A DNA stretch of 64,000 nt from a virus (taxonomy: Duplodnaviria; Heunggongvirae; Uroviricota; Caudoviricetes). The notes under the pieces were generated by a model. The model had not been told where the DNA came from, searched no databases, and saw only the letters and a list, made by a program, of their open reading frames with translations. Position numbers and translations under genes: made by a program. The stretch is from IMG/VR virus record IMGVR_UViG_3300042549_004104, positions 96,001 to 160,000 of that record. One strand, written 5' to 3'. Shown in pieces: positions 1,277 through 50,885 of the stretch (positions are counted from its first letter, which is position 1; each line of letters starts with the position of its first letter).

Positions 1277-2101
1277 ATGTCAACTAATCCACTACAACAA
1301 TATTTCCGTCGTCCAGCTTTATATCTTAAATTACCTAGTCAAGGGGAAGGTTATCCTGAAAATAGCATAGAATTCCCTGAAAACGGTGAGTTAGCTATAT
1401 TTCCAATGACTGCAATTGATGAGATTACCGCACGTACACCGGACGCATTATTTAACGGGGTAGCAGTAATAGAAATCATCAAAAGTTGTGTACCATCAAT
1501 AAAAGATCCATGGCAAATCTTACAAATTGATCTAGACCCTATTTTGTTAGCAATCAAAATGGCTACTAATGGATCTACTATGGAATTTGATACTGTATGT
1601 CCATCATGCGAAGAACCTAATAAGTACGATATTAATTTAACACAATTATTAAATGAATATAAACCAGGGGAGTATAATACCCCACTAAAACTAGACCAAC
1701 TTTCATTGAAATTTTGTCCATTAAATTATAAACAAATTAATGAAACCAGTGTCATCCAATTTGAAATTCAACGTGCTTTACGCATTATACAAGACATGCC
1801 GGACGGTGATGAGAGAAATGCTAAATCAACTGAAGTTTTAAGAAAAATGAACCAAGTTACAATGGATATCATTGTTGAAACAATAGAATATATTTCTTCA
1901 CCGAATGGTATAGTATTGGATAAGAATTTTATTAAAGAATTTTTAGAAAATGTTGATGTAAAAACATTTGAAAAGATTAAAGATATCTCATTAGAATTAA
2001 AGAAATCAACAGATACAAAACCATTAAAATTCAAATGCATCAATTGTAGCCATGAATACGAACAACCTTTCAATGTGAACGTATCCGATTTTTTCGGATG
2101 A
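1277..2101 (+). CDS. Baseplate hub subunit, T4 gp26-like
   Basis: NPLQQYFRRP...LPS.G, PMTAIDEI, LLAIKMAT and CPSC...CINC motifs; AGGAG RBS. Confidence 0.75.
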   Translation: MSTNPLQQYFRRPALYLKLPSQGEGYPENSIEFPENGELAIFPMTAIDEITARTPDALFNGVAVIEIIKSCVPSIKDPWQILQIDLDPILLAIKMATNGSTMEFDTVCPSCEEPNKYDINLTQLLNEYKPGEYNTPLKLDQLSLKFCPLNYKQINETSVIQFEIQRALRIIQDMPDGDERNAKSTEVLRKMNQVTMDIIVETIEYISSPNGIVLDKNFIKEFLENVDVKTFEKIKDISLELKKSTDTKPLKFKCINCSHEYEQPFNVNVSDFFG

Positions 2102-2325
2102 AACTTCTTATACTTAACTCCGAAGCAGTTAAGAAGTGGTTGGATAATTTAGAGGAGGAAGTAAAAGATATTAAAGCAGGATGTTTAAAAATGTCTTGGT
2201 TTATGAGGGGCGGAGTTAGTTATGTTGATATACTTAACATGAGTACCGATGAAAGAAAAACCATTAATAAAATTATTGAAGAAAATCTAGAAACTACAAA
2301 AACTAGTAGAATGCCATTCTTCTAA
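2098..2325 (+). CDS. Small baseplate hub assembly protein (gp51-like)
   Basis: ATGA-overlapped with the hub gene; WFMRGGVSY..ILNMS.DER pattern. Confidence 0.55.
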   Translation: MKLLILNSEAVKKWLDNLEEEVKDIKAGCLKMSWFMRGGVSYVDILNMSTDERKTINKIIEENLETTKTSRMPFF

Positions 2326-2379: not shown

Positions 2380-2422
2380 AGATGAACTTCGTTCATCTCA
2401 GAACTCGCTATTGCTCGTTCTG
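2380..2422 (-). other. Tandem hairpins with a GAA triloop and tandem GA mismatches
   Basis: Minus strand reads CAGAAC-GA-GC-AATA-GC-GA-GTTCTG directly followed by AGATGAAC-GAA-GTTCATCT. Confidence 0.6.
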
Positions 2423-2479
2423 GATTGTATTGTTTTTATTCTTATCTAGATTTTTAATTTTGTTTATTAAGGAATATAT

Positions 2480-2840
2480 TGCCGCTTAGAAGCCATGGTA
2501 GTGCAAATTTGCACTACCAATGGTTAAGGTCATTTGCCATGCCCGTCATCCTTAGCTATCTATTCCCCAGTTAATCACCGTTTTTATGATATTAACTGTC
2601 ACCGGTTGTCCTGTAAATTGTTATGGGACTGTAGTGAGACTATCAAGTTTATTTCAACTGACGCCTCGACAACGCATGTTACATACCCGCAAGATAGAAT
2701 TAGATATGTACTCATTGTAGGTTCCCTAGAAAGATTGCCTACTCGGTGTTCCTATGTTATTGCTAACATACATACTCCAGAATCTAACGGCACAGCACAA
2801 TCTGTACAATCTCAAGGAGGACTGACAACTCAGCCAACGA
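2480..2840 (-). ncRNA. Putative large structured non-coding RNA, family unknown
   Basis: GC-elevated intergenic tract with many helices on the minus strand, a GCAA tetraloop, a 13-bp long-range helix (2797-2785 with 2548-2535) and a terminal 24-bp palindrome (2496-2519). Ends are approximate. Confidence 0.6.
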
Positions 2841-2849
2841 ATTTTTATA

Positions 2850-3407
2850 TTATGTTGTTTCTAAAGTTATTATTTTTGGTTTTGACGTGGTGTCTGTTGA
2901 TAAACCTGAGTATAATTTTACTAAGTCTTTGTTTTGTTTGAAGAAGGTTTCGAACTCTGTTAGATACCAATCACCATACTTCTTACTTCCATAAAATATG
3001 TAATTATCCATAATCCATGTAAATTTAGGTTGTACAGCAACATAACGACCCTTACGATTAAACTTCATAAAAAGAATATTTAAATCATTTGAATCTTCTA
3101 CATCTAACAGTTGTCCAATCCACGAATCAAGTTGTTTGCATTCACCTGTAAGTATTAGGTGAAAAGGAAAGTCCGCATAGAACTTACACTCTGCATTCAT
3201 TTTGCTGAAACTCTGTCCCGGAACAATATCGCCCTTAAAAGAACGAATCTGTCCCTCATGTAAGAATTGAGTTCTGGCTTGATTCTTGCCACCCACATAT
3301 GCACCGGATCCAGGAGCACGAATGAAACTTTCACCGTACAATTCTGATAGAAATTTTGCAATTTCCCGTTCAAAACCTGAACCTTTATTCTTTTGTGGAC
3401 TTGACAT
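2850..3407 (-). CDS. Holliday junction resolvase-like PD-(D/E)xK nuclease
   Basis: KNKGSGFEREIA..L, R.PGSGA, GDI and ECK motifs typical of Hjc-like phage resolvases; adjacent to SbcCD. Confidence 0.75.
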   Translation of the reverse strand: MSSPQKNKGSGFEREIAKFLSELYGESFIRAPGSGAYVGGKNQARTQFLHEGQIRSFKGDIVPGQSFSKMNAECKFYADFPFHLILTGECKQLDSWIGQLLDVEDSNDLNILFMKFNRKGRYVAVQPKFTWIMDNYIFYGSKKYGDWYLTEFETFFKQNKDLVKLYSGLSTDTTSKPKIITLETT

Positions 3408-19575: not shown

Positions 19576-22500
19576 ATGGTAACAAAAGTTAGAACAATTG
19601 ATTTCTTACCGGAAATTTTTAAAACAAAAACTAATAGTCAGTTTTTACAGGCTACGCTGGATCAATTAACACAACAACCAGATTTTAAAAGAATACAAGG
19701 TTATATTGGTAGTAAGTTTGGTTATGGTGTTAATACCACAGACAAATATCTAGAGGAACCAAGTAAATCCCGAACAAATTATCAATTAGAACCTAGTATA
19801 GTTTTTAAAAAAACAGACACTAGTATTGCTAAAGATATATTGACGTATCAAGGATTATTAGACAGTTTAACACTACAAGGTAGTCTGGGTGAGAACATTA
19901 GTGATTCATTACAAAATCAATTTTATTCATGGGATAGTTTTGTTGATTTAGATAAAATAATTAACTATAGCCAATATTATTGGTTACCATTTGGTCCTGA
20001 TTCTGTTATTATTACACAAGACCAATTGTATAAAAATTTAACATATACAGTAACATCGGAGCCATCTCAATATTTCTTTGATACTGAAGAATTTAACATT
20101 GACCAATCTAATCCGCAAATCACTTTGGTGCGTGGAGGTACTTATGTTTTTGCAGTGAATCAAAATTCAAAGTTTTATATACAAACTAATGTTGGAATCA
20201 ACGGAGTAGAAGTAACAAGACCTAATTTTAGTACACGTGAAGTGTATGGAGTTGCCAATAATGGTGCATCAACAGGGTTAGTAACGTTCACAGTTCCTTT
20301 AAGTAACGCACAAGATGAATGGAATTTTCCCGGAAATTTAAATATTGATCTTGTAACAACTCTCAAATATGAAGATGTTCAAGGTAAGATTTTAAATGAT
20401 ATTGGTGGTATCGGAAATTATATAAACAAAACTTTATTATTTTATGGAAATCCTGCAGGGACCTTAGGAGCCAAATATGGTTTCTATGGTAGTGAATATG
20501 ATGTTGATCCGTTTGAATATACAACTTATACAGATGTCACTAAAAATTATTATACCATAAATGTATTAGACAACGGTGTAATTAATTTAGTAGAAGCTGG
20601 ATTACTGCCTGACAATACAAAAATTACTATAAATTTTGGTACTCAATATGTGTATAGAAATTTTGTAAAAAGTAGTTTGGGAGAGATCGTATTAATACCT
20701 TACTTAACTGCTAAATTAGATACATATTATTATCAAGATAGCGAGGACTCTAATAAGTATGGTATTATAAGAATAGTTGATTCCAACACATCTTCAAATA
20801 TAGACATTAATGATATTCTTGGTAAAAAACAATATATTAGTCCTAATAATATAAAATTTACTAACGGATTAAAAGTAGAATTTGCAGGAAACATATATCC
20901 TGAACAATATGCTCAAGGTCAATATTATGTTGAGGGTGTAGGCACTAGTATTCAATTATTACCTGTAACTGATTTTACTATTGTTGAAGATTTTGGTGAG
21001 TCATCAACCGCCCCATTTGATACTTACTCATATGATAGCACAAATTATGCAGACACGTTATTCTATCCAAAAGATCCAGATTATATTACTATAGCTAGAA
21101 ATAGTATTAATAAAAATGCATGGAGTCGCAGTAATCGATGGTTCCACATAGATGTATTGAATACTACTTTACAATATGCAGAATCTACTGAAAATACCTA
21201 TAATGCATTAAACAATTCTGATACACGCGGTAAAAGACCTATTGTAGAATTTTATCCTAATTTAAAATTATATAATTTAGGATCGGTATCTAAACCAAAT
21301 ACTAGTTTTATTGATTTTAGTTCAACTGATGCATTTTCTCAAGTTGCAGGACAAACAAGTTTTTCTCCTAATGGAGAATCTATTGCAATATTTGATGGTG
21401 CTACTATTATCTTTGCGGGTGACACTGATTTAAATATTAGAAATAAAATATTTGTTGTTAGTTTTGAAAGTTTAAGCGGAGTTAGCACCCCTGTAATTAC
21501 ATTAACTCCGATAGAGAACGGAAATATTTTATATAATGACCAAACAGTAATTACTATCGGTGATAATTATCAAGGCGAAACCTTTTGGTTTGATGGAACT
21601 AATTGGATTCAAGGACAATTAAAAACACGTACAAATCAACCTCCGTTGTTTGATGTTTTTGACAAAAATAATATAAGTTACGGAGATAAAGATTTTTATC
21701 CAAGTAGTGATTTTGAGGGATGTACATTATTTGAATATACAATAGGTACAGGAACAGATGATCCAGTATTAAAATTTCCAATCAAATATAGTTCTTTAAA
21801 CAATTTAGGAGATATAAGTTTCACTGTCTCATTAAATACACAAACCTTTAATTATGTGGATGGTAGTTTATCCGTAACTTCTAATATTAATAATGGATAT
21901 GTCTTCGATTATTATGATAGAGTTAATTATAATAGGGCTATTGGATGGCAAACTGCTATTGGGGAAAGTTTTCAATACCAAGTATTCAATACAACCTATA
22001 CTAGCATTCCAATAGAACCTACATTTACATTTGATATTGCAGCCAAAGTGCAAACATCTACTCCGTGGCCTGTATTAACTGTTTACGTAGATAATGTAAG
22101 ATTAGCGCAAACAGAATTTTCTTATATTATAACTGATAATACAACTACTATTACATTAACTACTACTCCCTTTATAGGAACTACAATTGATGTACTCATA
22201 TACAGTGATCAATCAAGTAAAACTGGATATTATGAAATTCCAAGTAATTTGGATCATAATCCATTTAATTCAGAAATAACTACTATTAATTTAGGTGACA
22301 TAAGAGGACATTATAAGAGTATTTGTAATAATAGTCCGAACTTCAGTGGATTAGCATTTGGATCTAATAATTATAGAGATTTAGGTAATGTAATTCCATA
22401 TGGCATGAGAATAGTACAGAACAGTGCTCCACTTGTAGCCGCCGGCGCATTTTTAAGAAATCCTTATGTAAATTTCTTTGACGCACTTAATTTTTCAGGT

Positions 22501-25500
22501 GTTGAATATATAAAATTTAAAGCATTGATTCTACAAACAATTCAAAATAATGATTATAATTCTTTAGATACTAGTGCTTATATTTTAGATGATGTTTTAG
22601 AAAAGATAGGACAATCTAAAATTAATTCTAATCCGTTTTTCTGGAGCGACATGCTACCTAATAAAAACGCTGAAGCTATAAATTCTTATGTGTTTAAGTC
22701 TGACATTTCTACTAGCAATTTTACGCTGTCTAGAATATATGACTTTACTAAAGCTAATTATTATGGTGTTTTGGTATACTTAACCAGACGTGTTAATGGT
22801 ACAATTAGATACATTCAACTTATAAAAGATGTTGACTATATAATTTCTTCAACAGAGGAAAAAATAACTGTTACAAAAGATTTAATCAACAACGATGTTA
22901 TAACCATTAAAGAATATAATCAAACATACGGAAGTTATGTTCCAAACACACCAACTAAAATAGGATTATATCCTGCGTCATTGCCGCAAGTTGTGTATGA
23001 TACTTCATATGTAAAACCTACTTACTTTATAAAAGGGCACGATGGTTCATTTAATAAATTATATGGAAAATATGTTGATGGTTTCTTAACTGATTATAGA
23101 GATAGTGTATTATTAGAGTTTGAAACAAGAATCTATAATAATTTGAAAATAAGTTCAGATATAGCGTTAGAATACGATGATGTTGCACCGGGTTATTTTA
23201 GAGACACTGGAGTATCTTATACTGACTTTTTAAACGTATACCTAACACAATTTTTAAATTGGGTAGGAACTAATAGAATTGATTATCAAGAGCATGACGA
23301 TTATGTCAGTACTAATCCATACACCTTTAATTATGCAGGTTCTACTTTAAAAATCGATAAATCAAAAAACTCCATTGGTAATTGGAGAGGATTGTATAAT
23401 TATTTGTATGACACCGCGACCCCAAATACAACTCCGTGGGAAATATTAGGACTAATAAACAAACCTGATTGGTGGGACACATATTATGGAGAAGCTCCAT
23501 ATACTAGTGATAATACTTTTATGTGGGATGATATTAGTCGGGGTTTTGTATATAACAATGGTAATAGCTATATAAACACAAAAAGAATTAGAGATGGCTT
23601 ATTGAATATTATCCCAGTTGACAGTGACGGAAATTTAAAGAGTCCGTTTGAATTCTTAATTAATTCATACGATGTAAATAATTTTTCTAATATATGGAAA
23701 GCAGGAGATACCGGACCTGCTGAATATAGTTACTTAAAAAGTAGCTCATGGCCATTTGATTTAATGCGTTTATATGCGTTATTCAAACCTGCTAAGTTTT
23801 TTGGTCTTAGTATTGATGTTGATGAATACAAATATAATAATGAGTTTAATCAATACTTATATCAAGATAGATTTAGAGATTCGTTAAGTAATCTTTCAAT
23901 ATACGGCAATGGAACTTCAAAAAATAGCTATATCAATTGGTTAGTAGATTATCTATCTCAATATGGAATAGACGGTCATGCAGATATTCTTACCTTACTT
24001 AAAAATCTAGATGTCCGTTTAAGTTATCGATTAGCTGGATTTACAGATAAGGATTTAATAAAATTTTTCGTAGAAAAGGGAACACCAAACAGTAGTAATA
24101 ATTCTTTGATGATTCCGGACGACAGTTATAGCATTATTTTATATGACAACCCACCAAATGATACTATTCGTTATAGTTCTATAATTATACAAAAAGTAAG
24201 TAATGGATATAGAGTTTTAGGTAATAATCAAAACAGAACATATTTTGTTTCGTTAAGCCCTATACAAGATGGATTATTTCAGACAATATCAGTTAATGAT
24301 GTTACTGTCAGAGTGCCTAAAAATTATAGAGATAGAAAAGTATTGACTCCTTATGGAAGTTTATTTACAAACCAAGAAGATTTGTTTACTTTTATGAGAG
24401 GGTATGGTAAATACCTAGAATCTCAGGGCATGACATTTGATGATATAGAAAACGGAATTGAATTGTCTTGGGATCAAATGCTTGCTGAGACATTGTATTG
24501 GGTAGAAACTGGTTGGGATGTCGGTAGTATTATTAACGTTAATCCCGCATCACGTATTATTAATGTAGATAAAGATAATAATGTCGTACAGCCTTTAACT
24601 TTGACAAAAGAAAACTTTATTTTAAACCAAAACAGCACTCCAATATTATTGTCGGATATGAATATTTTTAGACAAGGTACTACATTCAATGTTAAGGCAT
24701 TAAATGAAGGTGATAGTATGAGTTTCTTTAATTCTAACCTTAGCACAATTGAACATGTGGTGGTGTTTAACAATGAAACTGTCTTTAATGATGTAATATA
24801 TAATTTAATAACTGGATTAAGACAACAACGAATTTATGTAAAAGGTTCTAAATCAGCTGGCTGGGAAGGTTATGTAAATGCAGCAGGATTTATTTTAAAT
24901 CAAGACAACATTGAAGAATGGGTAGAAAATAAAAAATATACTAAAGGAACTATTGTTAAATTTAAAAATGAGTATTACAGTGCAAAAGAAATTATTACAC
25001 TACCAAAAATAAAATTTGATTATAATGATTGGAATAAAACGTCATATGACATGATTCAAAAAGGATTGTTACCAAATCCAAGTACTCGTTCCGCTGAAGC
25101 AACAAAATTCTATGATACAGTAAATCCTAATTTAGCAAACGACGGAGACCTATTAAGTTTCAGTTTAATTGGGTATAGACCAAGACAATATTTTGCAAGT
25201 GCTAATTTTGATGATGCTACTCAAGTTAACTTGTACAAAAACATGATTGGTGTGAAAGGTACAGTTGACAGCGTAACAAAACTTCAAGGTATAAATGTAC
25301 AACAAAATACTTTGAATTATGACATACATGAAAATTGGGCTATAAAATCTAGTGAATTTGGTGGTTTATTAAATCAAAACTTCATTGAATTTACTTTGAA
25401 CGAAGCTGAATTGACAGGTGATCCTAGTATAGTAAGTGTTATTAACAACATCGGGGTTGATGGGGCACAACAACAAATACCATTAAACAAAATTAAAAAT

Positions 25501-28500
25501 TATGGTCGTCCATTAAGCAACACTGATATTTTACCAATATTACCAAGTAATACTGAAGAAAAATTACCAAGCGCCGGATATGTTAATATTGACGATGTAT
25601 TGCAATATGGATATACAGTAAATAATTTACTTGATGCTGAAATTTACAACTTGTATAAAAATGATTATCTCTGGGTAGCAGATAAAGATAATACATGGCA
25701 AGTATACACCCCGTCAAGTTATGGTGCCATTGTAATTAGTATTCTTAATAATTTAAATGGTACTGTCACAGTTATTTTTGATAAACCACATAGTTTATTG
25801 TTAAATCAAGTGTTTGGTATATTAAATTTTGATAGTAGAATTGATGGATACCATTTAATTGAACAAGTTGTCAGTTTAACTAGTTTAGTTATCAGATTGA
25901 CGTTAGACCCGGGCATAATATCTTTAACAGGTAATGGTTTATCTTTCTTATTACAGAGTCAACGTGTTGCCACTGCAAGAGACATTTCGGGATTGCCTTT
26001 ATTAAATGCTGAATATGATACTAATCGTGTTTGGGTAGATCAAAATCAAAATGGTGATTGGACAGTATATGAAAAAACAAATAATTATACTGGCTCAGGT
26101 TTACCTACAGTAGGTTTAAGTGTTGACAATTTTGGAAGTAGTGTAGCATACATTGAAAACGTCGGGTATTTTGTCGGTGATCCTACTAATGGATCAGTGT
26201 ATCATTATGCAAAATCACCCGCTGGAGTTTTCTATCTAAGAAACACAATAACATATCCTGGTAGTGATTTTGGAACTAGTATAATTACTAGTCAGGATCT
26301 AATAATTATTTCTTCACCGGACGTAACACTTAGCCAAATTTATATATATAAAATACCACCTTCTGGTGAAATTAATAGTATTATTTTACAAGAAGTTATT
26401 TCAATAGGTGGAGCCCGTGTTGGTGATAGTATGGCTATATCCGGTGATGGTAACTGGTTATATTTAGGTGCAAAAACAGTAAATATTGTTTTATTATTCC
26501 AACGTATTGGTGTTTTGACATATCAAGCTGCTGGATTAAGTCTTGCAGAAGCTACAGTACTTAATTCAAATAGTTTTGTTTGTGACGGAGACGTTAGAAC
26601 ATTATTAAGTGAAGGACAATTAGTTAATTTCTTAGTATCATATACTTCACAAAGTATGTCATTAGCTCAACCAACTGTAGAGTTAGATACATTTTTTGTA
26701 GTTGAAGGAGATCAACGAAGTAAACTAGCAAATGGTGATAAGATTTCGTTTTATAATACCGGTGCAGTCGGTACGTATTTGTATACAATTGCTACCGAAA
26801 GCTATGATTCAATAGATGATACTACAACATTTTATACTCTTGAAGAATTTGAAGTAGGTGTAATTATACCTCCGGGAACAAATGTTTATAAAGTTAATTT
26901 TAATGATAATTTAACTTTTACAGTTGTTACTGGAACATATGATAATATAACTGATACTACAACATTCTACACATTAGAAAAAATAGAGTATACAGCTTCT
27001 TCTGGATCAAATATCTATATTGGAAATGTTAATTTTGCATTATCAACTTTCTTAGATTCTATATTGGCTAACGTAAATGCAGAATACGGTGGAAGTATAT
27101 CTACAAACTATGATGGTTCAAGATTGTTCATTGGGTCACCAAAAGAAGATTACAGTGAAAGTGTTTTGGATACAGGTGTAGTATATGTTTATGACAGATT
27201 AATTCAAAATTACGAGATACAATATAATCAAACAGATGCGGTTTTACTTATCAGAACTGCATTCAATTTAAACCCACAAACAAGAATTTTACGTAATGGG
27301 GTGTTTTTACCTCCTAATCAATATGTAATTATTTTAAATGCAGTAATTATAGGAGTTATTGGGGTTAAAGCAGGAGATATAATTACGGTTAGTAGTGCAG
27401 ACTTTGTGAATACATTTAGATTGTCTAATATGGATGATCCTAGTGATTTACGTCCTGGAGAACTATTTGGATTTGCATTAGATTGCAACAAATACGGTAG
27501 TGAATTGTTAATTGGATGTCCATATGATGTAAGCAATGATAACACTAAAGAAGGTTCTGTTGTAAGATTTACTGATGAAGGTAAACGATATGGAATTATA
27601 ACCGGTGTTCTAGCTTGTAATATAATACAATCAACATATATTTTATTAAATGGTTATGAAGTTGCATTACGTAACGATACTCCATTATTAGTATCTATTA
27701 CAGGTGGTGTTTCTACTACGGTAACTATTAGCACTACTATGGCAGCTACTTTACCAAGTAATGGAATAATTACGGTACAAAATTCAAGCACCGGAGATTT
27801 TGAATTATTATTTTATAATTCAGTAAACGTATCAACCGGTGTGTTAACTTGTGCTACTGCCGCAGTAAATTCGTACACAGCTAATCAAGCCAACGTAATC
27901 TTACCATTAGGTAATGCAAGCAACGTAGCGGCTAAAATTAATCAAACATTTATCACAAACATATTTGCTTATTCTACCCTAGATGGTAGACTTATAATTA
28001 GACTACGTGACCAATCATTGGGTCAATTAAATAATAAACTAACTATAAGTGTGTTTAATGGTAATTATTTGTATCAAATGGGATTCTTCTTCCCTAAATC
28101 ACAAGTTATTCAAGATCCGCACCCACAAACATCTACGCAATTTGGTTATGCAATTAAACATAATGAAGAAAGTAGTTTTGTTGTTGGCGCTCCTGTAAAC
28201 AGCAGATATGTTGCAACAAAATTTGATTATTCAAATGATAGTAATAATCACAATGATACAGTATTTGATAATAATCTAACAGTGTTTGAAGATAATTATA
28301 CAAATGCAGGTAGTGTTTATATGTATGATTACATAGAGGCTTATGATGAAAGTTTGAATAATATTGGCAATTATATCTATGCACAATCATGTAATGACAC
28401 CACGCTTGAATATGGAGTGCAGCCACAATATGGAAAAGCGTTGTCGTTTAATAACAATGCAGTAATGATCGGTGCACCTAATTTACAAACAACAATAAGT

Positions 28501-31500
28501 CCTGGTGGCAAAGCAATGCTTTGGAAAAATGATTCTGGTGTAAAAAATTGGCATGTTTATCGTGAAGGTGATGACATTGTTGATGTAAGCAAATTACAAA
28601 AAGTACAGCTTTATGATAATACTAATGATAATAATTTAATTTCATTAGACTATATTGATCCTTTACAAGGAAAATTATTAGGTGCGGTGCGTGAAAATAT
28701 TGATTTCATATCAACAACTGACCCTGCGGGCTATAATGCTCCTGGAGTCAACAAAGGAACCAAAGTTTGGACAAAGTCTTTTGTAGGTAAAATCTGGTTT
28801 GACACGACAACTACTAAGTTTTTAAATTATCATCAAGACGATGTAATTTATAATAGCAAATATTTTGGTATGGTATTTCCAGGAAGCGATATTACAGTTT
28901 ATAGTTGGATAGAAAGTAATGTAATACCTGCTTTATATGAAGGTCCCGGAACACCATACGACTTTGCAAAATACTCAACCATATTAGAAACAGATAGTAA
29001 TAATAATTTAATTACTAGATATTTTTATTGGGTTCGTAATACCAACATTATTAATACTGCTCAATATAAAACACTGTCAGATACGATTATTGAAAGATAT
29101 ATTGCTGATCCAATAAGTTCAGGTATAGCATATATGACACCGTTACGTCCTAATACATTTGGATTATACAATTCACAAGAATATATAAATGACACTTCAA
29201 CCAACATGCATGTTGGATTTAGTAGTGGTGGTAATGACACAAAAGGGCATGTTGAATTCCAACTAATACGTAGTAATTATGACACTGATTTCTTACCAGG
29301 ATTCCCGGAACCTGTAAAAGGTTACATTTTACCAACTGGATTATATGATAGATTTATTGATAGTCTAGCTGGAGTAGATGAATCAGGTTTAATAGTGCCC
29401 GATCCAACTTTACCTAAATTATTACAACTTGGAATCAACGTGAGACCAAGACAGGGATTTTTTATCAATAGATTAGAAGCATTACGTAATTACCTTGAAT
29501 ACGCAAATCAAGTCATCGCACAATATCCTATAAATGAGTTTGGTAATATAACTTTCTTATATGAGCAAGGTGATTATTTTGATGTAGCAAATTATTGGGA
29601 AAACATATATTGGTGGGAAACGGGTTATAGTAATAGTACACGCACAGTATTAGATGTAGCATCATATACAGATTTATCAACATTGTCTGTTACTGAAGGA
29701 ACTATCGTAGGGGTAGTAAGCAATGCACAGGGTAACCGTGAAGTATACATTTATACAGACTCAACTTGGAATAGAATTGGTTTACAAAATGGAACAATAC
29801 GATTCCTATCAACATTGTGGAATTACACAACTAACATGATAGGGTTTGGTGACAGTTTCTTTGACAACTCTAGTTATGATTCATATCCTTCAACTGAAAC
29901 TCGTTACATTATTCGTGCATTAAACGAACAAATTTATATTGGACCGTTGTTAACACATAGAAATAAAAGTTTAATTTTAATTTTTGAATATATTCAAAGT
30001 GAAAATATTGAATCACAAAATTATTTACCATGGTTAAATAAAACAAGTTTTGCAGATGTAAGCTACAGTGTTAGAACACTTACTACTAATCAAAAATTTC
30101 AACGTGACAATCAAAGTTTATTAGAAGGTTATATAAATGAGGTCAAACCATATCATGTGGTTATGAAAGAGTTTTATTTAAAATACGACAAAACTGATTT
30201 ATATAATACTGATATAACTGATTATGACTTGCCAAGTTTGTATAATACTAGTGTAAGTAATTTTGTAAGCCCTCAATTAGTTTACAAAGAATTCCCAAAT
30301 AAACCTGCGTATGAATTTAACACCACTAGTTCTGTTTGGGAACTTCCAAATTATGCCCAATGGTTTAATAACTATGGATTAGTAATAGGAACACTTGATA
30401 ATGTTGTCATGGGAGTATTAATTTCATACATAAGTTCAATATCAACAGAAATTTATGTAGACACCGTTGATGGGTTTCCGGTAGCCGGCGTAATAAAAAT
30501 TGATGATGAAATTATGGCATACACATCAGTGAATCGTGTTAATAAACTGTTATTAGGAATTAGTAGAGGTATAAACAATACAACACCAGTAGAACATTTT
30601 ACAAAATCAACTGTTTATATGGATGTTCCGGGTATAAATGTTTTAAATAGTGGTCGTGATTATGATGACATACCAACTGTTACAGCAGTGGTAGATACTA
30701 CTAAATATCCTGCACCAAGAAAAGCTGCATCGTTAGTAAGTATAATGTCAGGTAACAAAGTAGTGGGTGTAAAAGTAACGGATCCGGGAGACGGCTATGT
30801 AGTTACCCCAAACATTGTTTTTGAAGATGCATATTATGTTACTACGACTTTGGACAGAATTAATTTCTTAAATCATACTATACAATTTTTAGATATAACT
30901 TTTTCAACCGGAGAACTTGTTTATTTAGAAGGTGTTAGCTCAAATGGTTATACTATCGTACCTGATGGATTTTACTATATTGGAGTTATTCAAATCGAGA
31001 CTACATTCTCTATAACTCCAAATGGTATTATTGTAAGTCTACACACCAATTATCAAGACTCCATTGACGGACAAAATCATATTATATTTGTAAATGAAAA
31101 TACAGTTCCTGCTGATTATGAACAAAAAATGTCCATAAGAGCAAGAGCTATCCCCTCAATGGTAAATAACAAAATTAGAAGTTTGAAGCCTACATTATGT
31201 TTTGATAGAACTAGTTACGAGTCTAGAATAAAAGAATGGGTTCCCGGGGCATATTATTCAAGTCCTTATATTAGTATTGGAAATGATGCAAGTAATCCAG
31301 ATAAACTTTATATAGGCACACCTTATGATGAAATGTCAGGAACAGTAAGTCCTGCAGGTGGATCTGGAGCAACATTTACAATCTATAACATATTAATGGG
31401 TGGTAACTATGAAGCTGACATTGAATTTGGTGGAACAGGTTATGATGTTAACGATTTAATTACTATTTTAGGAACAGATTTAGGAGGCACAACACCTGCT

Positions 31501-34500
31501 AATGATTGTGTGATAAAAGTTATTGATATTGATTTAGGAGTTATCACAGAAATTGAAATAGATACTTCATCAGGTACTCCTTTAGATGTGCGTTTGGCAA
31601 GTTTACAAGGTGCGGTATTACCAATAGTAAGTGTTACTAGTGATGACGGAAACGCAGTTGCTACTGTAAATTATGGATATAGTGCATTACATCCGGGCCA
31701 AGTTAATGGATCATTAATGTATTTTTACCGAGTTCATTCTGCTTATCCTTATGATGATAGCAGTTCAGGTGGTGCAATTATTGATGTATATTGGCCTAAA
31801 TTTAATCCTAGTGATATTAATAATTTATATTATATTCAAGTGGTAGACCCCGGCTCTATATATACGACCGGAGATACTATTTCTATTCCTGGAGATCCGT
31901 ACTTGGGCGGTGTTACTGGTATTAACGATTGTAAGATTTACATTCAAGCAAACTTAGACGGATCAATATTTTCAACTAATGTAACTGGATTTAGTAACGG
32001 TCAATTTGGTCAATACTATGTTAAGGTAATTAGTAATACTGATTTAGAAATTGAATTAGGAATTTATTATGATCCTAAATTTATAAATCCAGTTGCATAT
32101 AGCAATTTTATATGGACAGATAATTCAACTGATTATGGTTATTTACCAGAGCCGCTAGTTGCTAATTATTCATATGGCTATAACATTAGTTCAATTGTTT
32201 ATTATAGTGGTTACGTTTGGCAATGTATAGATGCTAATAATGACACTGAATTTGATCCTACAAAATGGATAGAATTAAGTAGTGATGACGGGTCATTAAA
32301 TGCATTAGATAGAATTGAAGCATATTATGCTCCTACAATTGACATGCCGGGTAAAGATGCACAGCAACTTGTTAAAGGTATTACTTACCCTAACAATGTA
32401 TATTATGGTAATGCATTTGCCCCGGATGAAGAGTTACCGTTAGATTTTATTGTACGTGATGAGCCATTTTACCCTAGACAATTTAATGCTAAGGCATCAG
32501 TATTTGATGGCACTTATATATACGTAGTTGGAAATAATGAGACAACAACTCTTGTATTGAAGTTTGATAGCGAAGGAACTTTCGTATCAAGTTCATCTAT
32601 TGGAAGTCAAGTCTTTGAAATTACTAGTATGTCGTACTCTTTACTTCCAACAGAAACATATATCATTACAACAACAAATACAACCAATCCATTGTTTACA
32701 AGTTTTGATGGTGCAAATTGGATTGGTATAGGAGAAACCACAGCGTATGATACTACCCAATATGGAGATGGTGGATTTGATAGTTCTAGTATAGATGCCC
32801 CGTATGCATCATTGTACGGTGCTGTAATTGTTAATAATAATTACTTTTTAACAGGTAAGAACATACTAAAAAGCACAGACGCTTTTGCATACAATAGTGT
32901 ATATGACCCCTTTACAAGTTTCCCAACTTATATCAATAACATGATGTATGTCAATTTATCAGCGTTCAATGGATACATAGGAGTTGGTTTAACTTACAGG
33001 CTAACATCGGGCGGAGGCACAGCGTATCCTATATATTCAGAAGTTGGAAAAGTAGTATTAAGTATTGATGACGGTAACACCTGGACTCAATTATTGCCTG
33101 ATTTCTCTAGTTCTAAATTAAATGGTGTTTCTGCTTCTAATACATACATTGTTGTTGTAGGTAATGACGCAAGCGTATGGTATAGTACAAATGCTTCTAA
33201 TTGGACAGAAGGAACAATATCAGGTTCTTCTATAACTACTAACATAAAATCAGTAGCATATGGCGCTGGTAAATTTATAGCAGTTGGTGATAAAACAGGC
33301 ACATCGGCTACTGATCCAGGATTAATCTTGTTATCAACTGATGGAATAACTTGGTCTCAAATTTCTAGTTCTAGCATAACTACAAATAATTTAAATCAAG
33401 TTTACTATGGTAACAATAGATTTTATGTAGTTGGAGAAGAGAATACTTTAATAACATCAAGCGATGGTATCAATTGGTATGAGTTAGGAAAATTAGTAGC
33501 AAATGATCCGTTCTATATTGTGCAAGGTAATGACTTCTTGTACGGCTATGGTCCAGAAGAATTAGTCCCCGGCGTTATAGCTGACAATCTTTCAATGTAT
33601 GTTACTACTGCTCCCGGCGCATATTGGGACTTAAATGTTTCTAATCCATTCTGGTACAAGCACACCGGATTTAATATGCAAGCAGTTGTTAATAATCTTG
33701 ATATAAATTATCAAGTTAGCTTCCGTGACGTAGTATTAAATCCAGCAAGAATGAGTGTATTCTTATTGAACAATTCTACAAATTTAAGCACTAGAATTTA
33801 CGAAGATACTTATGGGCCTGCATTAACTTATAATTATTCTGTTGATTGGTATAATCAAACAATTACTTTCAATAACAGTGCGATTCCGGGCGTATTACCT
33901 GCAGGACATTCATTATTAATTGAATTGTATGAAGTAGGTAATGGCAAAGAAATAGTTCGAGGCAATAGTAGAAACATTCCATTATTGATTGATCCAGTAA
34001 CTGGATATTCAATGTACGTATTCAATACGACATACGAAAGTATTGTAAATGAACCTTTAGTGTATGTGTCTGAAAATGGCGGTTCGTTAACAAAGTTAAC
34101 ACATAACATTGATTATTTTGTAACTAATACAAATGATAATTTTTTAAAGTTACTATTTAATAAGACATATGACCTAAGCACTGACTATATTGTTTATTCA
34201 ATATTAGGTGATAGCAGTACGAGTATTAGTGTAGACCAGTTTGGATACTCTATACCTGAAACACAAATTTTTGTTGCTGAAACCACAAGTGTTTACTTTG
34301 AGTTAGATATGAGCTTAACAAGTTTAGATGGTGACAATGTATTAAATTCTGTTGTAGAAAAGAACGGTAACCGCATAGCATATATAGATGGTGATATAAA
34401 CACTGATTACATTTTTGAAGAAATTGATGATGTTTGGTATTTAAAATTAGAAACCGCACCTACTGTGGGTGATGTTATTGCTGTAACAACATTCTATGAT

Positions 34501-35904
34501 ACTTCAAGGCAGTTTTTAACAACAGGACGCTATATTAGTGGTACAAGTTTGCGTGTGGCAGCAATTACTTATATAGACAATACAGTAAGTCCAATCAGAG
34601 TAACATTTGCTACAGATCCCAATCCATCAGTTACAAATATATCAGGTTCATTGTTTAAATTAGATGGTGTTAATGGAACGACTGAAGTGAACGGTAATAC
34701 ATATTATATTAATCAAATTGATTCAACTAATTATGATTTATATTCATTTGTTGTCACAACATCAGTTACCGGAGTGTTGGGTGATTCATTCATAACTACG
34801 ACTGATATTGATGATATTATTATAGGTATGTTAGTGTCAGGAACTGGTATTGGTAAAGGTGCAACAAATGGAGGCGCCTTCATAACTAATATTGAAGCAG
34901 ATACACCAACTGCCGGAACATATAAAATTACATTATCTGTAGTTAATACTGATGTAGTATCATCGGCAAACTTTGCTTGGAAGACAACAGGTGATGATTT
35001 TAGTACTTATATTAGTAGTGGTTTTGGTTGGGATAATTTATTCACTATTCAAGTACCTTCTCCTACTATTCCTGCTAATTTTACTGGAATGCCCCCGATG
35101 ATATACACTGAAGGTTCTCGTACATGGGTAACTATAACAGGTAAAAGACTTAATCCTAGTTATGTTAAATTCTATGATGATAATTATATTGGAATTTTAC
35201 ATCCTTTAACTTTGGTTGAAGAAGTGTTAGTGACTAGTATGGTCACAGGTGCAAGTCCAAATAGCATTTCTTTCAATCTTTCTGTTGATAAAAATTCACA
35301 AAGTTATGTCACTAGAACGAATAGTCAAGACGGTTCATGGTTGACTCAAGATTTTATTACCGGTGAAGATACTATGCATTTTTATAATGTAAGTAATTTA
35401 GTTGAACAGGTAAACACTACAGTTAATGTTGTTGAAGTTGATTCTGTCATTTATGCGTATGTTCAATGTGATATTAATACAGTTAAACAAGTTGAAGTTT
35501 ATAACAATACAACTCTTGAAACTTTGACAGATGATTCAACATATGGAATAAGATTAGTTAATGGCCGAGCAGCTATAGTGTTTATCTCTGGAGCAAATGC
35601 TGGTGATTTAGTAACTGTAAGTTTAATTATTGGTAATATTGTGGAAATAAATGGAGAAAAAATTAAATTCAACACTATTAATATCAACAACAATACCATA
35701 ACTGGATTGACAAGGGGAGTTCAAGGAACAACAACCCTAGAAACTCATGCTGAAAATAGCATTGGTTTTGGTATTACTCCGGCTAGAAGATTGACAGAAG
35801 CTCAATATTCAGAAAATTGGAATAGTTACGAAATCACTAGTTTTGGTGATCCTTTACAGATAAGCACTACATCCGAAGGAATATTCTTAAATAGCATAAA
35901 TTAA
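19576..35904 (+). CDS. Giant (5442 aa) baseplate/virion structural protein (gp7-like position)
   Basis: Uninterrupted ORF after gp6; FG-GAP-like and Asp-box repeats; YINEVKPYH motif. Confidence 0.7.
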   Translation: MVTKVRTIDFLPEIFKTKTNSQFLQATLDQLTQQPDFKRIQGYIGSKFGYGVNTTDKYLEEPSKSRTNYQLEPSIVFKKTDTSIAKDILTYQGLLDSLTLQGSLGENISDSLQNQFYSWDSFVDLDKIINYSQYYWLPFGPDSVIITQDQLYKNLTYTVTSEPSQYFFDTEEFNIDQSNPQITLVRGGTYVFAVNQNSKFYIQTNVGINGVEVTRPNFSTREVYGVANNGASTGLVTFTVPLSNAQDEWNFPGNLNIDLVTTLKYEDVQGKILNDIGGIGNYINKTLLFYGNPAGTLGAKYGFYGSEYDVDPFEYTTYTDVTKNYYTINVLDNGVINLVEAGLLPDNTKITINFGTQYVYRNFVKSSLGEIVLIPYLTAKLDTYYYQDSEDSNKYGIIRIVDSNTSSNIDINDILGKKQYISPNNIKFTNGLKVEFAGNIYPEQYAQGQYYVEGVGTSIQLLPVTDFTIVEDFGESSTAPFDTYSYDSTNYADTLFYPKDPDYITIARNSINKNAWSRSNRWFHIDVLNTTLQYAESTENTYNALNNSDTRGKRPIVEFYPNLKLYNLGSVSKPNTSFIDFSSTDAFSQVAGQTSFSPNGESIAIFDGATIIFAGDTDLNIRNKIFVVSFESLSGVSTPVITLTPIENGNILYNDQTVITIGDNYQGETFWFDGTNWIQGQLKTRTNQPPLFDVFDKNNISYGDKDFYPSSDFEGCTLFEYTIGTGTDDPVLKFPIKYSSLNNLGDISFTVSLNTQTFNYVDGSLSVTSNINNGYVFDYYDRVNYNRAIGWQTAIGESFQYQVFNTTYTSIPIEPTFTFDIAAKVQTSTPWPVLTVYVDNVRLAQTEFSYIITDNTTTITLTTTPFIGTTIDVLIYSDQSSKTGYYEIPSNLDHNPFNSEITTINLGDIRGHYKSICNNSPNFSGLAFGSNNYRDLGNVIPYGMRIVQNSAPLVAAGAFLRNPYVNFFDALNFSGVEYIKFKALILQTIQNNDYNSLDTSAYILDDVLEKIGQSKINSNPFFWSDMLPNKNAEAINSYVFKSDISTSNFTLSRIYDFTKANYYGVLVYLTRRVNGTIRYIQLIKDVDYIISSTEEKITVTKDLINNDVITIKEYNQTYGSYVPNTPTKIGLYPASLPQVVYDTSYVKPTYFIKGHDGSFNKLYGKYVDGFLTDYRDSVLLEFETRIYNNLKISSDIALEYDDVAPGYFRDTGVSYTDFLNVYLTQFLNWVGTNRIDYQEHDDYVSTNPYTFNYAGSTLKIDKSKNSIGNWRGLYNYLYDTATPNTTPWEILGLINKPDWWDTYYGEAPYTSDNTFMWDDISRGFVYNNGNSYINTKRIRDGLLNIIPVDSDGNLKSPFEFLINSYDVNNFSNIWKAGDTGPAEYSYLKSSSWPFDLMRLYALFKPAKFFGLSIDVDEYKYNNEFNQYLYQDRFRDSLSNLSIYGNGTSKNSYINWLVDYLSQYGIDGHADILTLLKNLDVRLSYRLAGFTDKDLIKFFVEKGTPNSSNNSLMIPDDSYSIILYDNPPNDTIRYSSIIIQKVSNGYRVLGNNQNRTYFVSLSPIQDGLFQTISVNDVTVRVPKNYRDRKVLTPYGSLFTNQEDLFTFMRGYGKYLESQGMTFDDIENGIELSWDQMLAETLYWVETGWDVGSIINVNPASRIINVDKDNNVVQPLTLTKENFILNQNSTPILLSDMNIFRQGTTFNVKALNEGDSMSFFNSNLSTIEHVVVFNNETVFNDVIYNLITGLRQQRIYVKGSKSAGWEGYVNAAGFILNQDNIEEWVENKKYTKGTIVKFKNEYYSAKEIITLPKIKFDYNDWNKTSYDMIQKGLLPNPSTRSAEATKFYDTVNPNLANDGDLLSFSLIGYRPRQYFASANFDDATQVNLYKNMIGVKGTVDSVTKLQGINVQQNTLNYDIHENWAIKSSEFGGLLNQNFIEFTLNEAELTGDPSIVSVINNIGVDGAQQQIPLNKIKNYGRPLSNTDILPILPSNTEEKLPSAGYVNIDDVLQYGYTVNNLLDAEIYNLYKNDYLWVADKDNTWQVYTPSSYGAIVISILNNLNGTVTVIFDKPHSLLLNQVFGILNFDSRIDGYHLIEQVVSLTSLVIRLTLDPGIISLTGNGLSFLLQSQRVATARDISGLPLLNAEYDTNRVWVDQNQNGDWTVYEKTNNYTGSGLPTVGLSVDNFGSSVAYIENVGYFVGDPTNGSVYHYAKSPAGVFYLRNTITYPGSDFGTSIITSQDLIIISSPDVTLSQIYIYKIPPSGEINSIILQEVISIGGARVGDSMAISGDGNWLYLGAKTVNIVLLFQRIGVLTYQAAGLSLAEATVLNSNSFVCDGDVRTLLSEGQLVNFLVSYTSQSMSLAQPTVELDTFFVVEGDQRSKLANGDKISFYNTGAVGTYLYTIATESYDSIDDTTTFYTLEEFEVGVIIPPGTNVYKVNFNDNLTFTVVTGTYDNITDTTTFYTLEKIEYTASSGSNIYIGNVNFALSTFLDSILANVNAEYGGSISTNYDGSRLFIGSPKEDYSESVLDTGVVYVYDRLIQNYEIQYNQTDAVLLIRTAFNLNPQTRILRNGVFLPPNQYVIILNAVIIGVIGVKAGDIITVSSADFVNTFRLSNMDDPSDLRPGELFGFALDCNKYGSELLIGCPYDVSNDNTKEGSVVRFTDEGKRYGIITGVLACNIIQSTYILLNGYEVALRNDTPLLVSITGGVSTTVTISTTMAATLPSNGIITVQNSSTGDFELLFYNSVNVSTGVLTCATAAVNSYTANQANVILPLGNASNVAAKINQTFITNIFAYSTLDGRLIIRLRDQSLGQLNNKLTISVFNGNYLYQMGFFFPKSQVIQDPHPQTSTQFGYAIKHNEESSFVVGAPVNSRYVATKFDYSNDSNNHNDTVFDNNLTVFEDNYTNAGSVYMYDYIEAYDESLNNIGNYIYAQSCNDTTLEYGVQPQYGKALSFNNNAVMIGAPNLQTTISPGGKAMLWKNDSGVKNWHVYREGDDIVDVSKLQKVQLYDNTNDNNLISLDYIDPLQGKLLGAVRENIDFISTTDPAGYNAPGVNKGTKVWTKSFVGKIWFDTTTTKFLNYHQDDVIYNSKYFGMVFPGSDITVYSWIESNVIPALYEGPGTPYDFAKYSTILETDSNNNLITRYFYWVRNTNIINTAQYKTLSDTIIERYIADPISSGIAYMTPLRPNTFGLYNSQEYINDTSTNMHVGFSSGGNDTKGHVEFQLIRSNYDTDFLPGFPEPVKGYILPTGLYDRFIDSLAGVDESGLIVPDPTLPKLLQLGINVRPRQGFFINRLEALRNYLEYANQVIAQYPINEFGNITFLYEQGDYFDVANYWENIYWWETGYSNSTRTVLDVASYTDLSTLSVTEGTIVGVVSNAQGNREVYIYTDSTWNRIGLQNGTIRFLSTLWNYTTNMIGFGDSFFDNSSYDSYPSTETRYIIRALNEQIYIGPLLTHRNKSLILIFEYIQSENIESQNYLPWLNKTSFADVSYSVRTLTTNQKFQRDNQSLLEGYINEVKPYHVVMKEFYLKYDKTDLYNTDITDYDLPSLYNTSVSNFVSPQLVYKEFPNKPAYEFNTTSSVWELPNYAQWFNNYGLVIGTLDNVVMGVLISYISSISTEIYVDTVDGFPVAGVIKIDDEIMAYTSVNRVNKLLLGISRGINNTTPVEHFTKSTVYMDVPGINVLNSGRDYDDIPTVTAVVDTTKYPAPRKAASLVSIMSGNKVVGVKVTDPGDGYVVTPNIVFEDAYYVTTTLDRINFLNHTIQFLDITFSTGELVYLEGVSSNGYTIVPDGFYYIGVIQIETTFSITPNGIIVSLHTNYQDSIDGQNHIIFVNENTVPADYEQKMSIRARAIPSMVNNKIRSLKPTLCFDRTSYESRIKEWVPGAYYSSPYISIGNDASNPDKLYIGTPYDEMSGTVSPAGGSGATFTIYNILMGGNYEADIEFGGTGYDVNDLITILGTDLGGTTPANDCVIKVIDIDLGVITEIEIDTSSGTPLDVRLASLQGAVLPIVSVTSDDGNAVATVNYGYSALHPGQVNGSLMYFYRVHSAYPYDDSSSGGAIIDVYWPKFNPSDINNLYYIQVVDPGSIYTTGDTISIPGDPYLGGVTGINDCKIYIQANLDGSIFSTNVTGFSNGQFGQYYVKVISNTDLEIELGIYYDPKFINPVAYSNFIWTDNSTDYGYLPEPLVANYSYGYNISSIVYYSGYVWQCIDANNDTEFDPTKWIELSSDDGSLNALDRIEAYYAPTIDMPGKDAQQLVKGITYPNNVYYGNAFAPDEELPLDFIVRDEPFYPRQFNAKASVFDGTYIYVVGNNETTTLVLKFDSEGTFVSSSSIGSQVFEITSMSYSLLPTETYIITTTNTTNPLFTSFDGANWIGIGETTAYDTTQYGDGGFDSSSIDAPYASLYGAVIVNNNYFLTGKNILKSTDAFAYNSVYDPFTSFPTYINNMMYVNLSAFNGYIGVGLTYRLTSGGGTAYPIYSEVGKVVLSIDDGNTWTQLLPDFSSSKLNGVSASNTYIVVVGNDASVWYSTNASNWTEGTISGSSITTNIKSVAYGAGKFIAVGDKTGTSATDPGLILLSTDGITWSQISSSSITTNNLNQVYYGNNRFYVVGEENTLITSSDGINWYELGKLVANDPFYIVQGNDFLYGYGPEELVPGVIADNLSMYVTTAPGAYWDLNVSNPFWYKHTGFNMQAVVNNLDINYQVSFRDVVLNPARMSVFLLNNSTNLSTRIYEDTYGPALTYNYSVDWYNQTITFNNSAIPGVLPAGHSLLIELYEVGNGKEIVRGNSRNIPLLIDPVTGYSMYVFNTTYESIVNEPLVYVSENGGSLTKLTHNIDYFVTNTNDNFLKLLFNKTYDLSTDYIVYSILGDSSTSISVDQFGYSIPETQIFVAETTSVYFELDMSLTSLDGDNVLNSVVEKNGNRIAYIDGDINTDYIFEEIDDVWYLKLETAPTVGDVIAVTTFYDTSRQFLTTGRYISGTSLRVAAITYIDNTVSPIRVTFATDPNPSVTNISGSLFKLDGVNGTTEVNGNTYYINQIDSTNYDLYSFVVTTSVTGVLGDSFITTTDIDDIIIGMLVSGTGIGKGATNGGAFITNIEADTPTAGTYKITLSVVNTDVVSSANFAWKTTGDDFSTYISSGFGWDNLFTIQVPSPTIPANFTGMPPMIYTEGSRTWVTITGKRLNPSYVKFYDDNYIGILHPLTLVEEVLVTSMVTGASPNSISFNLSVDKNSQSYVTRTNSQDGSWLTQDFITGEDTMHFYNVSNLVEQVNTTVNVVEVDSVIYAYVQCDINTVKQVEVYNNTTLETLTDDSTYGIRLVNGRAAIVFISGANAGDLVTVSLIIGNIVEINGEKIKFNTININNNTITGLTRGVQGTTTLETHAENSIGFGITPARRLTEAQYSENWNSYEITSFGDPLQISTTSEGIFLNSIN

Positions 35905-50830: not shown

Positions 50831-50855
50831 AATAGGCACTTCGGTGCCTATTTTT
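50830..50855 (+). terminator. Intrinsic terminator of the tmRNA transcript
   Basis: ATAGGCAC-TTCG-GTGCCTAT followed by a T-run. Confidence 0.9.
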
Positions 50856-50885
50856 CTAGGTATCCTAATGTATGATATATATTGT

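Follow-up and report, generated by a model that had tools for sequence, protein, structure and literature searches.

The window analysed here is a stretch of 64,000 nucleotides (64 kb), and forms part of a virus record of 359,563 bases that belongs to a lytic-type, T4-related jumbo phage with a helicase gene of its own. Within it, convergent baseplate-hub and Holliday junction resolvase genes bound a slot that holds the element under study, and the features of this locus are as follows.

1277–2325, plus strand: baseplate-hub (gp26/gp51-like) genes (PF12322, phrog_150), convergent with the resolvase gene and bounding the slot
2326–2849: non-coding gap between the convergent hub (plus) and resolvase (minus) genes
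2479–2838, minus strand: structured RNA of about 360 nt, with its ends inferred from the limits of conservation
2850–3407, minus strand: PD-(D/E)XK / RusA-like Holliday junction resolvase gene (PF24608, phrog_244)
2884–2894, minus strand: GAC-N5-GTC motif (GAC-N5-GT[CT] form) within the 3′ end of the resolvase gene
3420–3413, minus strand: late-promoter-like GATAAGTA, preceding the resolvase gene

Preceding the resolvase, which is a plain 185-aa PF24608 protein without an extra domain, are SbcC-like, SbcD-like, and late-sigma genes. As regards promoters, ATAAATA is the top upstream 7-mer in the genome, being found at 51 of 372 genes. The GAC-N5-GTC motif is kept at the nucleotide level in 82 of 85 cases and always begins with GAC, while aspartate elsewhere is encoded by GAT and GAC in a proportion of 483 to 258, and the specific form occurs once in the genome. 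We regard the GAC-N5-GT[CT] motif as a possible protein-binding site. In five loci, a second copy is situated past the resolvase stop codon.

Judged by its conservation and pairing pattern, the minus strand from about 2838 to 2479 is a real and conserved structured RNA. Among 323 viral loci with a related resolvase, the best 80 all carry a homologous stretch behind this gene (80/80). Conversely, in loci that were found via the RNA, the resolvase lies upstream wherever there is enough upstream DNA (81/81 and 63/63), with the hub genes downstream in 83 of 83. The 3′ motif recurs in about 240 viral and 230 metagenome stretches, and the carriers are giant lake phages with one element per genome. 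In fact, the element is single-copy in this 360-kb genome and in four of five large relative records, these being the four that hold the RNA. A protein search with the resolvase gave only close resolvases among the matches listed. For the covariation analysis, we used 85 homologues that are less than 97% identical (mean identity of 72%), in which 105 alignment columns are at least 97% conserved. Extra genes (ORFs that by eye resemble homing endonucleases, one unknown ORF, and a second copy of a hub gene) are located between the hairpins and the hub genes in L323 (4107–4880), L070 (1938–2438), L074 (4044–4655), and L018 (4099–4917).

The sequence-only reading of this DNA had seen no sign of RNase P, an intron, SRP, or tmRNA, and with Rfam 15 no family reached its gathering score in the region, there being only two chance CRISPR-repeat matches (E of 6–10). 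Similarly, nothing at E ≤ 1 was found in three homologous loci, and the families left unmatched include RNase P, SRP, tmRNA, introns, GOLLD, ROOL, HEARO, ARRPOF, GEBRO, and Polynucleobacter-1. When the gap was compared by blastn with 50,697 records of cultured phages, just four short chance matches came up. With nhmmer, there was no homologue of the RNA in 12 cultured-phage loci, nor was there one with two sub-domain covariance models in 10 of those 12 (best E of 0.1–0.3). Among 185,579 prokaryote genomes, there was a single pattern match, which was not the RNA, and with a loose 5′ pattern just 10 of 119 loci were genuine. Moreover, genes for a reverse transcriptase (PF00078) and Ro60 (PF05731) were both missing from the one genome searched, so the companion genes of a retron/RT-associated RNA or a Y RNA are lacking. 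Our literature search, in which most subscription papers lay out of reach, gave no account of this RNA. In the portion of Fremin et al. 2023 (PMC10690425) that was available, the candidate RNAs are up to 151 nt long, and fragments of this RNA may be included among them.

Pair covariation was scored with our own implementation (not R-scape) of a G-test with average-product correction and 20 tree-simulated nulls. Among the 85 homologues, 31 column pairs reached E ≤ 0.05, and all but three of these (28) are standard pairs; the covariation that the sequence-only reading had asked for is thus present. The resulting 66-pair model, which was derived from the same homologues on which it was scored, has 97.7% of cells paired and 42 pairs changed on both sides; no shuffle among 500 scored as high, and slid controls gave 31–46% pairing. 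By comparison, the single-sequence fold is modestly above shuffles and does not discriminate the strand (z of −2.50 for minus and −2.46 for plus). As modelled, the RNA consists of a 5′ domain (P1–P4), a four-way junction (P5–P8), a hairpin, two pseudoknots, and a terminal hairpin.

2820–2835, minus strand: P1 hairpin, with 5 of 5 tested pairs changing on both sides and pair 2834:2821 as the predicted GNRA receptor
2775–2819, minus strand: P2 (2819–2816/2778–2775), a conserved internal loop, and the local hairpin P3 (2807–2802/2795–2790)
2753–2770, minus strand: P4 hairpin with a GNRA tetraloop (2763–2760)
2600–2748, minus strand: four-way junction domain, made up of P5 (2748–2744/2604–2600), P6 (2742–2738/2721–2717), P7 (2715–2703/2687–2676), and P8 (2673–2668/2610–2605)
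2556–2697, minus strand: pseudoknot 1, loop 2697–2692 with 2561–2556, with 5 of 6 pairs changing on both sides and 96% paired
2564–2628, minus strand: pseudoknot 2, 2628–2625 with 2567–2564, with 3 of 3 tested pairs changing on both sides
2569–2597, minus strand: P10 hairpin, with seven pairs at E ≤ 0.05
2497–2518, minus strand: terminal 8-pair hairpin of near-invariant sequence, with 6 of 8 pairs never varying and 100% paired

All motifs listed in the sequence-only reading are found where it had placed them, and much of its pairing is borne out in the 85 homologues, which includes the hairpins at 2835–2820, 2770–2753, and 2597–2589/2578–2569 as well as the helices 2742–2738/2721–2717 and 2710–2703/2687–2680. 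Its proposed pseudoknot (2697–2692/2561–2556) likewise holds, with 10–11 concerted changes on the tree. On the other hand, a long-range helix drawn between 2797–2785 and 2548–2535 is wrong, since no compensatory change is seen (two-sided in none of nine pairs, with 86.5% pairing versus 86.6% in shuffles) and its 5′ strand instead forms the local hairpin P3. The GAGGC..GUCUC stem is variable (best pair E of 1.4) and is reduced or absent in some homologues, and what was described as a 24-base palindrome is a hairpin of eight pairs with a loop that in most homologues is not palindromic. Absent from that reading were pseudoknot 2 (for which pair 2628:2564 has 14–15 tree changes), the four-way junction, the contact of the GNRA loop with its receptor, the direct repeat at the RNA's 3′ end, and the hairpins that follow it.

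As for the P2/P3 region, a C-G to U-A replacement is found in 3 of 78 homologues and corresponds to two tree events. P8 encloses a variable hairpin along with invariant single strands. Insertions of about 40 nt lengthen P4 in L005 and L011, while the P8-enclosed hairpin is nearly missing in L031, L044, L047, and L072, and we thus consider both the P4 extensions and this hairpin to be peripheral. Three other helices (2780–2774/2635–2629, 2791–2788/2484–2481, and 2778–2775/2492–2489) found no support in the homologues, and one more (2544–2539/2496–2491) displays one-sided changes only.

With respect to strand, the G-U pairs and GNRA loop had been said to work on the minus strand only. This agrees with the 193 G-U versus 25 A-C combinations among 5095 cells and with the GNRA sequence of the P4 loop in 62–63 of 85 homologues. 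A plus-strand ORF of 135 aa offered no competing explanation: at least 95 codons stay open in just 4 of 85 homologues, open lengths fall in all three frames, and there is no Pfam match. More conspicuously, the third base of the P4 loop varies together with the P1 pair 2834:2821, such that GYAA accompanies G·U in 29 of 35 homologues and GYGA accompanies U-A in 21 of 28; seven of eight tree changes are concerted, which ranks this pair as the top one among 178 other variable columns. A GNRA loop base that covaries with a helix pair is the signature of a tetraloop-receptor contact, this being an RNA contact. Because of this covariation, the predicted loop-helix contact argues for an RNA with a three-dimensional fold. 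The same rule speaks against the idea that the 360-base fold works as single-stranded DNA, as does the presence of the region in RNA libraries, and we hold this alternative to be next to negligible. In its favour, the hairpins further downstream look DNA-type, and the available text of PMC5737381 notes that covariation alone cannot tell RNA from single-stranded DNA.

When public sequencing runs were searched, 17 carried a small share of this phage's words, the best of them probably being DNA, and sequence differences in the best-holding run pointed to the relative L012. In all four of four lake metatranscriptome runs (2025), contigs at least 98% identical to L012 span the RNA and continue into the resolvase gene. 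These contigs are unstranded, come maybe from one campaign, and may include DNA, so that what they attest is the presence of the region in RNA libraries and not the ends or level of the RNA. In one run (X3), the contig over the RNA ends 10 nt past the conserved end, with L012 3906–4076 uncovered, and its depth across the resolvase and RNA is 97–163 versus 4–21 for the neighbours, although depth in one run cannot rank genes. No dedicated sigma-70 promoter for the RNA stands out (best, 9/12). As regards a ColE1-type antisense RNA I over the 5′ end, the one hint is a plus-strand promoter-like site at 2822–2851 (10/12), which is directed away from the RNA body.

Such contigs, although a bridging one does not prove a single transcript, are in line with the RNA being the 3′ end element of the recombination-operon mRNA, i.e., a structured terminator, nuclease block, or regulator that meets the convergent hub transcript, and so is its unfailing position, in which it follows the resolvase immediately and is opposed to the hub genes. 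However, its structure is far more elaborate than terminators require, no U-tract terminator was found at the RNA end, and the equivalents in cultured relatives have promoters of their own and occupy several unrelated loci; we view this explanation as quite unlikely. Taken together, the covariation and strand asymmetry, the lack of an Rfam counterpart, and the recovery of the region in RNA libraries support the earlier suggestion of a new large phage non-coding RNA family.

A ribozyme that cuts or joins RNA, for instance in order to free itself from the mRNA or to create its own primer end, would be compatible with the replication-origin role that is set out below. The element is ribozyme-like in size and has both tertiary contacts and invariant unpaired segments (2635–2630, 2615–2611, and 2484–2480), but no Rfam ribozyme matches at E ≤ 10, and contigs on L012 contain no joined or skipped segment. 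Resemblances to RNase P P4, the group I intron S-segment, and group II introns, as noted by eye against consensus sequences, fail on topology. To us, catalysis of this sort seems very unlikely.

Turning to the 3′ end of the RNA and the DNA beyond it, four features are arranged in succession.

2534–2542, minus strand: upstream copy of a bulged direct repeat, N-C-(AU)-GGCAA
2479–2485, minus strand: terminal repeat copy, N-CGGCAA, at which conservation ends
2423–2478, minus strand: A+T-rich spacer (84% A+T), a candidate unwinding element
2380–2422, minus strand: twin hairpins, comprising a tandem-GA hairpin (2422–2399) and a C-GAA-G triloop hairpin (2398–2380)

The variable first bases of the two repeat copies, 2542 and 2485, are identical in all 159 parsed 3′ domains (G in 114, U in 42, and C in 3), with eight of the 167 distinct domains being unparsed and the C/C register our own choice, and the two positions undergo 10–11 concerted tree changes. 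Variants of the 3′ domain that differ in the spacer keep the repeat. Across 78 loci, with 700 nt of upstream and 400 nt of downstream sequence included, none of 1418 columns covaries as a complementary partner of 2542/2485, and thus any common partner must be on the opposite strand. What is left is that the two copies are either paired with that strand or homo-paired with one another. In 78 homologues, the spacer has a median length of 58 nt and a mean of 76% A+T. Past the spacer, the tandem-GA hairpin occurs in 57 of 81 loci and the triloop hairpin in 67 of 81, as against 0 and 1 of 81 for the antisense, and together they fold as DNA with a z of −5.8. By virtue of tandem G-A mismatches and a C-GNA-G loop, we take these to belong to a class of DNA-type hairpin motifs. 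Counted as a hairpin-loop motif on the sense strand downstream, it is found in 69 of 78 loci, with none on the antisense.

Among 11 cultured relatives examined, seven have a gene-poor gap of 0.7–1.5 kb behind the hub genes, directly so in PA5oct, Phosso, 121Q, CBB, and EJP2 and three genes further on in XacN1 and Xoo-sp13, while the other four lack it. Large gene-free gaps with unrelated, conserved-looking sequence are seen at L319 2986–4001, L330 6338–7023, and L335 6405–7103; the Phosso gap adjoins a gene for RNase HI, and those of XacN1 and Xoo-sp13 adjoin one for a helicase. In the linear genomes of BF, GAP32, fHe-Yen9-03/04, and XacN1, though not PA5oct, the hub gene and slot are near the genome midpoint. 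None of the cultured-relative slot elements has detectable similarity to this RNA by nhmmer, covariance models, or a CBB-family profile, the last of which gave nothing significant in this genome or two relatives, and Rfam had no match in eight of the slot loci.

In the cultured relatives, the nuclease gene that neighbours the slot is itself changeable and may also be absent: the resolvase is inverted in PA5oct and Phosso and replaced by endonuclease VII in 121Q and CBB, and SCTP-2 has a 46%-identical resolvase and no such gap. The gap is thus not tied to this resolvase, which weighs on the proposal that the RNA is a scaffold or guide for the adjacent resolvase acting as an RNA-directed nuclease. 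TnpB and IscB exhibit a layout of nuclease gene and linked RNA to which the resolvase-RNA arrangement can be likened, and the invariable adjacency and co-orientation, along with the motif conserved at the nucleotide level in the 3′ end of the gene, fit such a role. Nonetheless, the protein is a PD-(D/E)XK resolvase of ordinary make and not a RuvC/HNH effector, homologues exist without the RNA or gap, and the RNA is a single fixed copy with no sign of mobility and an A+T-rich spacer downstream; a guide function strikes us as highly improbable.

The CBB/121Q/EJP2-type slot element is a conserved and unannotated sequence of roughly 500–600 nt (L332 4543–5330, L321 6046–6883, L336, and L468–L487). 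It matches 71 phage records, with four to five places per record in most rows listed; a CBB-family pattern gave six viral loci. The copies are dispersed and co-oriented (at 32, 94, 174, 258, and 336 kb in CBB, with five in EJP2 and four in 121Q) and begin with sigma-70-like promoters; RaK2, which is without the gap, has two copies elsewhere. In this CBB/121Q/EJP2/RaK2 family, the terminal hexamer, in which two positions vary, is repeated 43–94 nt upstream, with the two occurrences matching exactly in 15 of 16 copies, and the hairpin-loop motif is on the sense strand in 10 of 16 copies versus one for the antisense. The PA5oct slot element (L317 2480–3990) has paralogues at 12.9 kb and 246.1 kb of PA5oct, one of which falls within the published ncRNA004, with a hairpin match 52 nt past its end. 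As given in Table 1 of PMC7318152, ncRNA004 is scarce, making up 0.02–0.08% of phage reads and being highest early. The element described here thus has likenesses to these cultured counterparts in its slot (PA5oct) and its terminal repeat, A+T spacer, and hairpin motif (CBB family), but theirs have their own sigma-70 promoters, are multi-copy, and share no detectable sequence or model similarity with it.

This scarcity bears on another explanation, namely that the RNA is a free and ornate one akin to GOLLD or ROOL, processed from the resolvase transcript, and that it oligomerises or binds a host or phage protein, with the identical bases forming symmetric homo-pairs within or between molecules. 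A defined three-dimensional fold is implied by the two pseudoknots, the GNRA-receptor contact, and the 105 near-invariant columns, and GOLLD and ROOL are, as the available sections of PMC12286853 describe, phage-borne with conserved intermolecular contacts and an A-A helix. Indeed, being phage-borne, multi-junction, and pseudoknotted is common to all three (PMC12286853, PMC5737381, in the parts at hand), yet this RNA is shorter, has no Rfam match, keeps to a fixed single slot, has strand-specific DNA-type hairpins downstream, and is not near tRNAs, with no tRNA genes in the 64-kb window, whereas RNAs of the GOLLD/ROOL kind often lie close to tRNA islands. Set against the scarce PA5oct paralogue, ROOL can match the abundance of 16S rRNA. 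On balance, we find a free ornate RNA unlikely.

Our best reading of the element, for which we see about an even chance of being correct, is a candidate RNA-primed replication origin of the ColE1/T4 type. In terms of the model, it is predicted to be a compact two-pseudoknot RNA that likely functions in cis as a candidate origin initiator. Transcription of the resolvase gene would yield the RNA at the 3′ end of the transcript, and its tertiary fold would bring the upstream repeat (2542–2534) into pairing with the template strand of the DNA where the terminal copy lies (2485–2479), in a manner analogous to the rG stretch of ColE1 RNA II on a template dC stretch. Such pairing would hold a persistent RNA-DNA hybrid and open the A+T-rich spacer, with the displaced strand, as the carrier of the GA/GNA hairpins, then folding and loading helicase or primase. 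Lastly, a processed RNA 3′ end would prime leftward synthesis, this being co-directional with the 70-kb minus-strand gene block. Of the three functions suggested in the sequence-only reading, the primer has the most support, while the nuclease guide or scaffold is weakened and the ribozyme is without motif support.

Favouring an origin are the identity covariation of 2542/2485, its lack of a complementary partner, and the retention of the repeat in spacer variants. Further points in favour are the shared repeat layout in the unrelated CBB/121Q/EJP2/RaK2 family, a sense-strand hairpin-loop motif in both families, the gaps in cultured relatives (some beside RNase HI or helicase genes), the dispersed and co-oriented copies, the closeness to the orientation switch and skew minimum, and the RNA-library contigs. 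Since there is no detectable similarity to this RNA, what the cultured-relative slots, CBB layout, and dispersed copies contribute is analogy by position and layout. As for genome position, the RNA is about 5–10 kb from the main gene-orientation switch and GC-skew minimum in three of three genomes, which are syntenic and so not independent, and in its own genome the skew minimum is 5–8 kb away. As the skew tracks the coding strand and the genomes are syntenic, position is weak support for an origin; at four-fold sites, origin effects on the skew are not separable from those of transcription.

Comparison with known systems places this candidate origin in context. In the available portions of PMC4412123 and PMC5043065, the persistent hybrid of ColE1 RNA II is described as needing an RNA rG stretch that pairs with a template dC stretch. 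The likeness here would be a long structured transcript that ends at a candidate origin, a proposed pairing between upstream segment and template that holds an R-loop, and a displaced strand available for helicase or primase; the difference is a pseudoknotted tertiary fold that is apparently fused to an mRNA 3′ end in a phage encoding its own helicase. With no match in 72,556 plasmids, the element is not a ColE1 homologue, but by analogy may work like ColE1 RNA II. For T4, the sections of PMC3016281 at our disposal describe at least five origins, several of which are near strand switches, and R-loop origins at which a transcript is combined with an A+T-rich element. These depend on middle promoters and cease to work late in infection. 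According to the same sections, about 100 bp with a middle promoter suffices for oriF/oriG, with no specific RNA structure. Thus, the T4-related phage, the order of transcript and A+T-rich element, and the nearby coding-strand switch are alike, whereas a conserved 360-nt fold, the terminal repeat, the hairpins, and an apparent late-type promoter set this element apart from oriF/oriG. Cluster A mycobacteriophage prophages have RNA-based origins beside parABS for prophage-plasmid replication (PMC7157519, in the text available). Both cases concern non-coding RNA of a phage for which a part in driving replication has been proposed or demonstrated, though theirs serve prophage plasmids beside parABS, and no parABS is found among the annotated neighbours here. 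In the extract of PMC5737381 that was available, ARRPOF and GEBRO are structured motifs linked to replication regions, and three plasmid motifs average 223–349 nt. Like these, the present motif is moderately long, structured, and linked (as a candidate) to replication, but theirs are plasmid-borne and it has no Rfam match.

Several observations count against an origin. The element is single-copy here and in four relatives, unlike the multi-copy cultured families, and it is likely driven from a late-type promoter, in contrast to the middle promoters of the T4 R-loop origins. Moreover, an RNase HI gene is absent from this phage genome and the 5′-3′ exonuclease gene, while present, is far from the RNA. 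Of the cultured relatives, 4 of 11 are without the gap, and the identity covariation is accounted for equally well if like bases pair with each other inside the RNA. A broader and more tentative proposition, which we consider possible but rather doubtful, is that several unrelated families of ribozyme-sized RNAs in T4-related jumbo phages have converged as replication initiators, in which the fold would dock an internal copy of the 3′ end on the template, open the duplex, and hand over to replisome-loading DNA hairpins. Within its reach, our literature search returned no paper that maps a replication origin in these jumbo phages.

Large and intricate RNAs of bacteria and phages are rare and mostly without a function, and in this family a fold with good support and tertiary contacts is coupled with the prospect of a genetic test at single bases (2542 versus 2485). 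Because the slot and layout also occur in cultured phages (Sharanji, for example, has E. coli K-12 as its listed host), an origin role is open to laboratory testing even though this phage is uncultured.

Elsewhere in the window, there is a phage-encoded and circularly permuted tmRNA of the betaproteobacterial type (50381–50878, plus strand; tag ANDSQFALAA), which suggests a betaproteobacterial host. In addition, a TTTTTTC is present where the gp26-like ORF overlaps the gp51-like one (about 2085–2105, plus strand), and an ORF of 5442 aa extends over 19576–35904 (plus strand).
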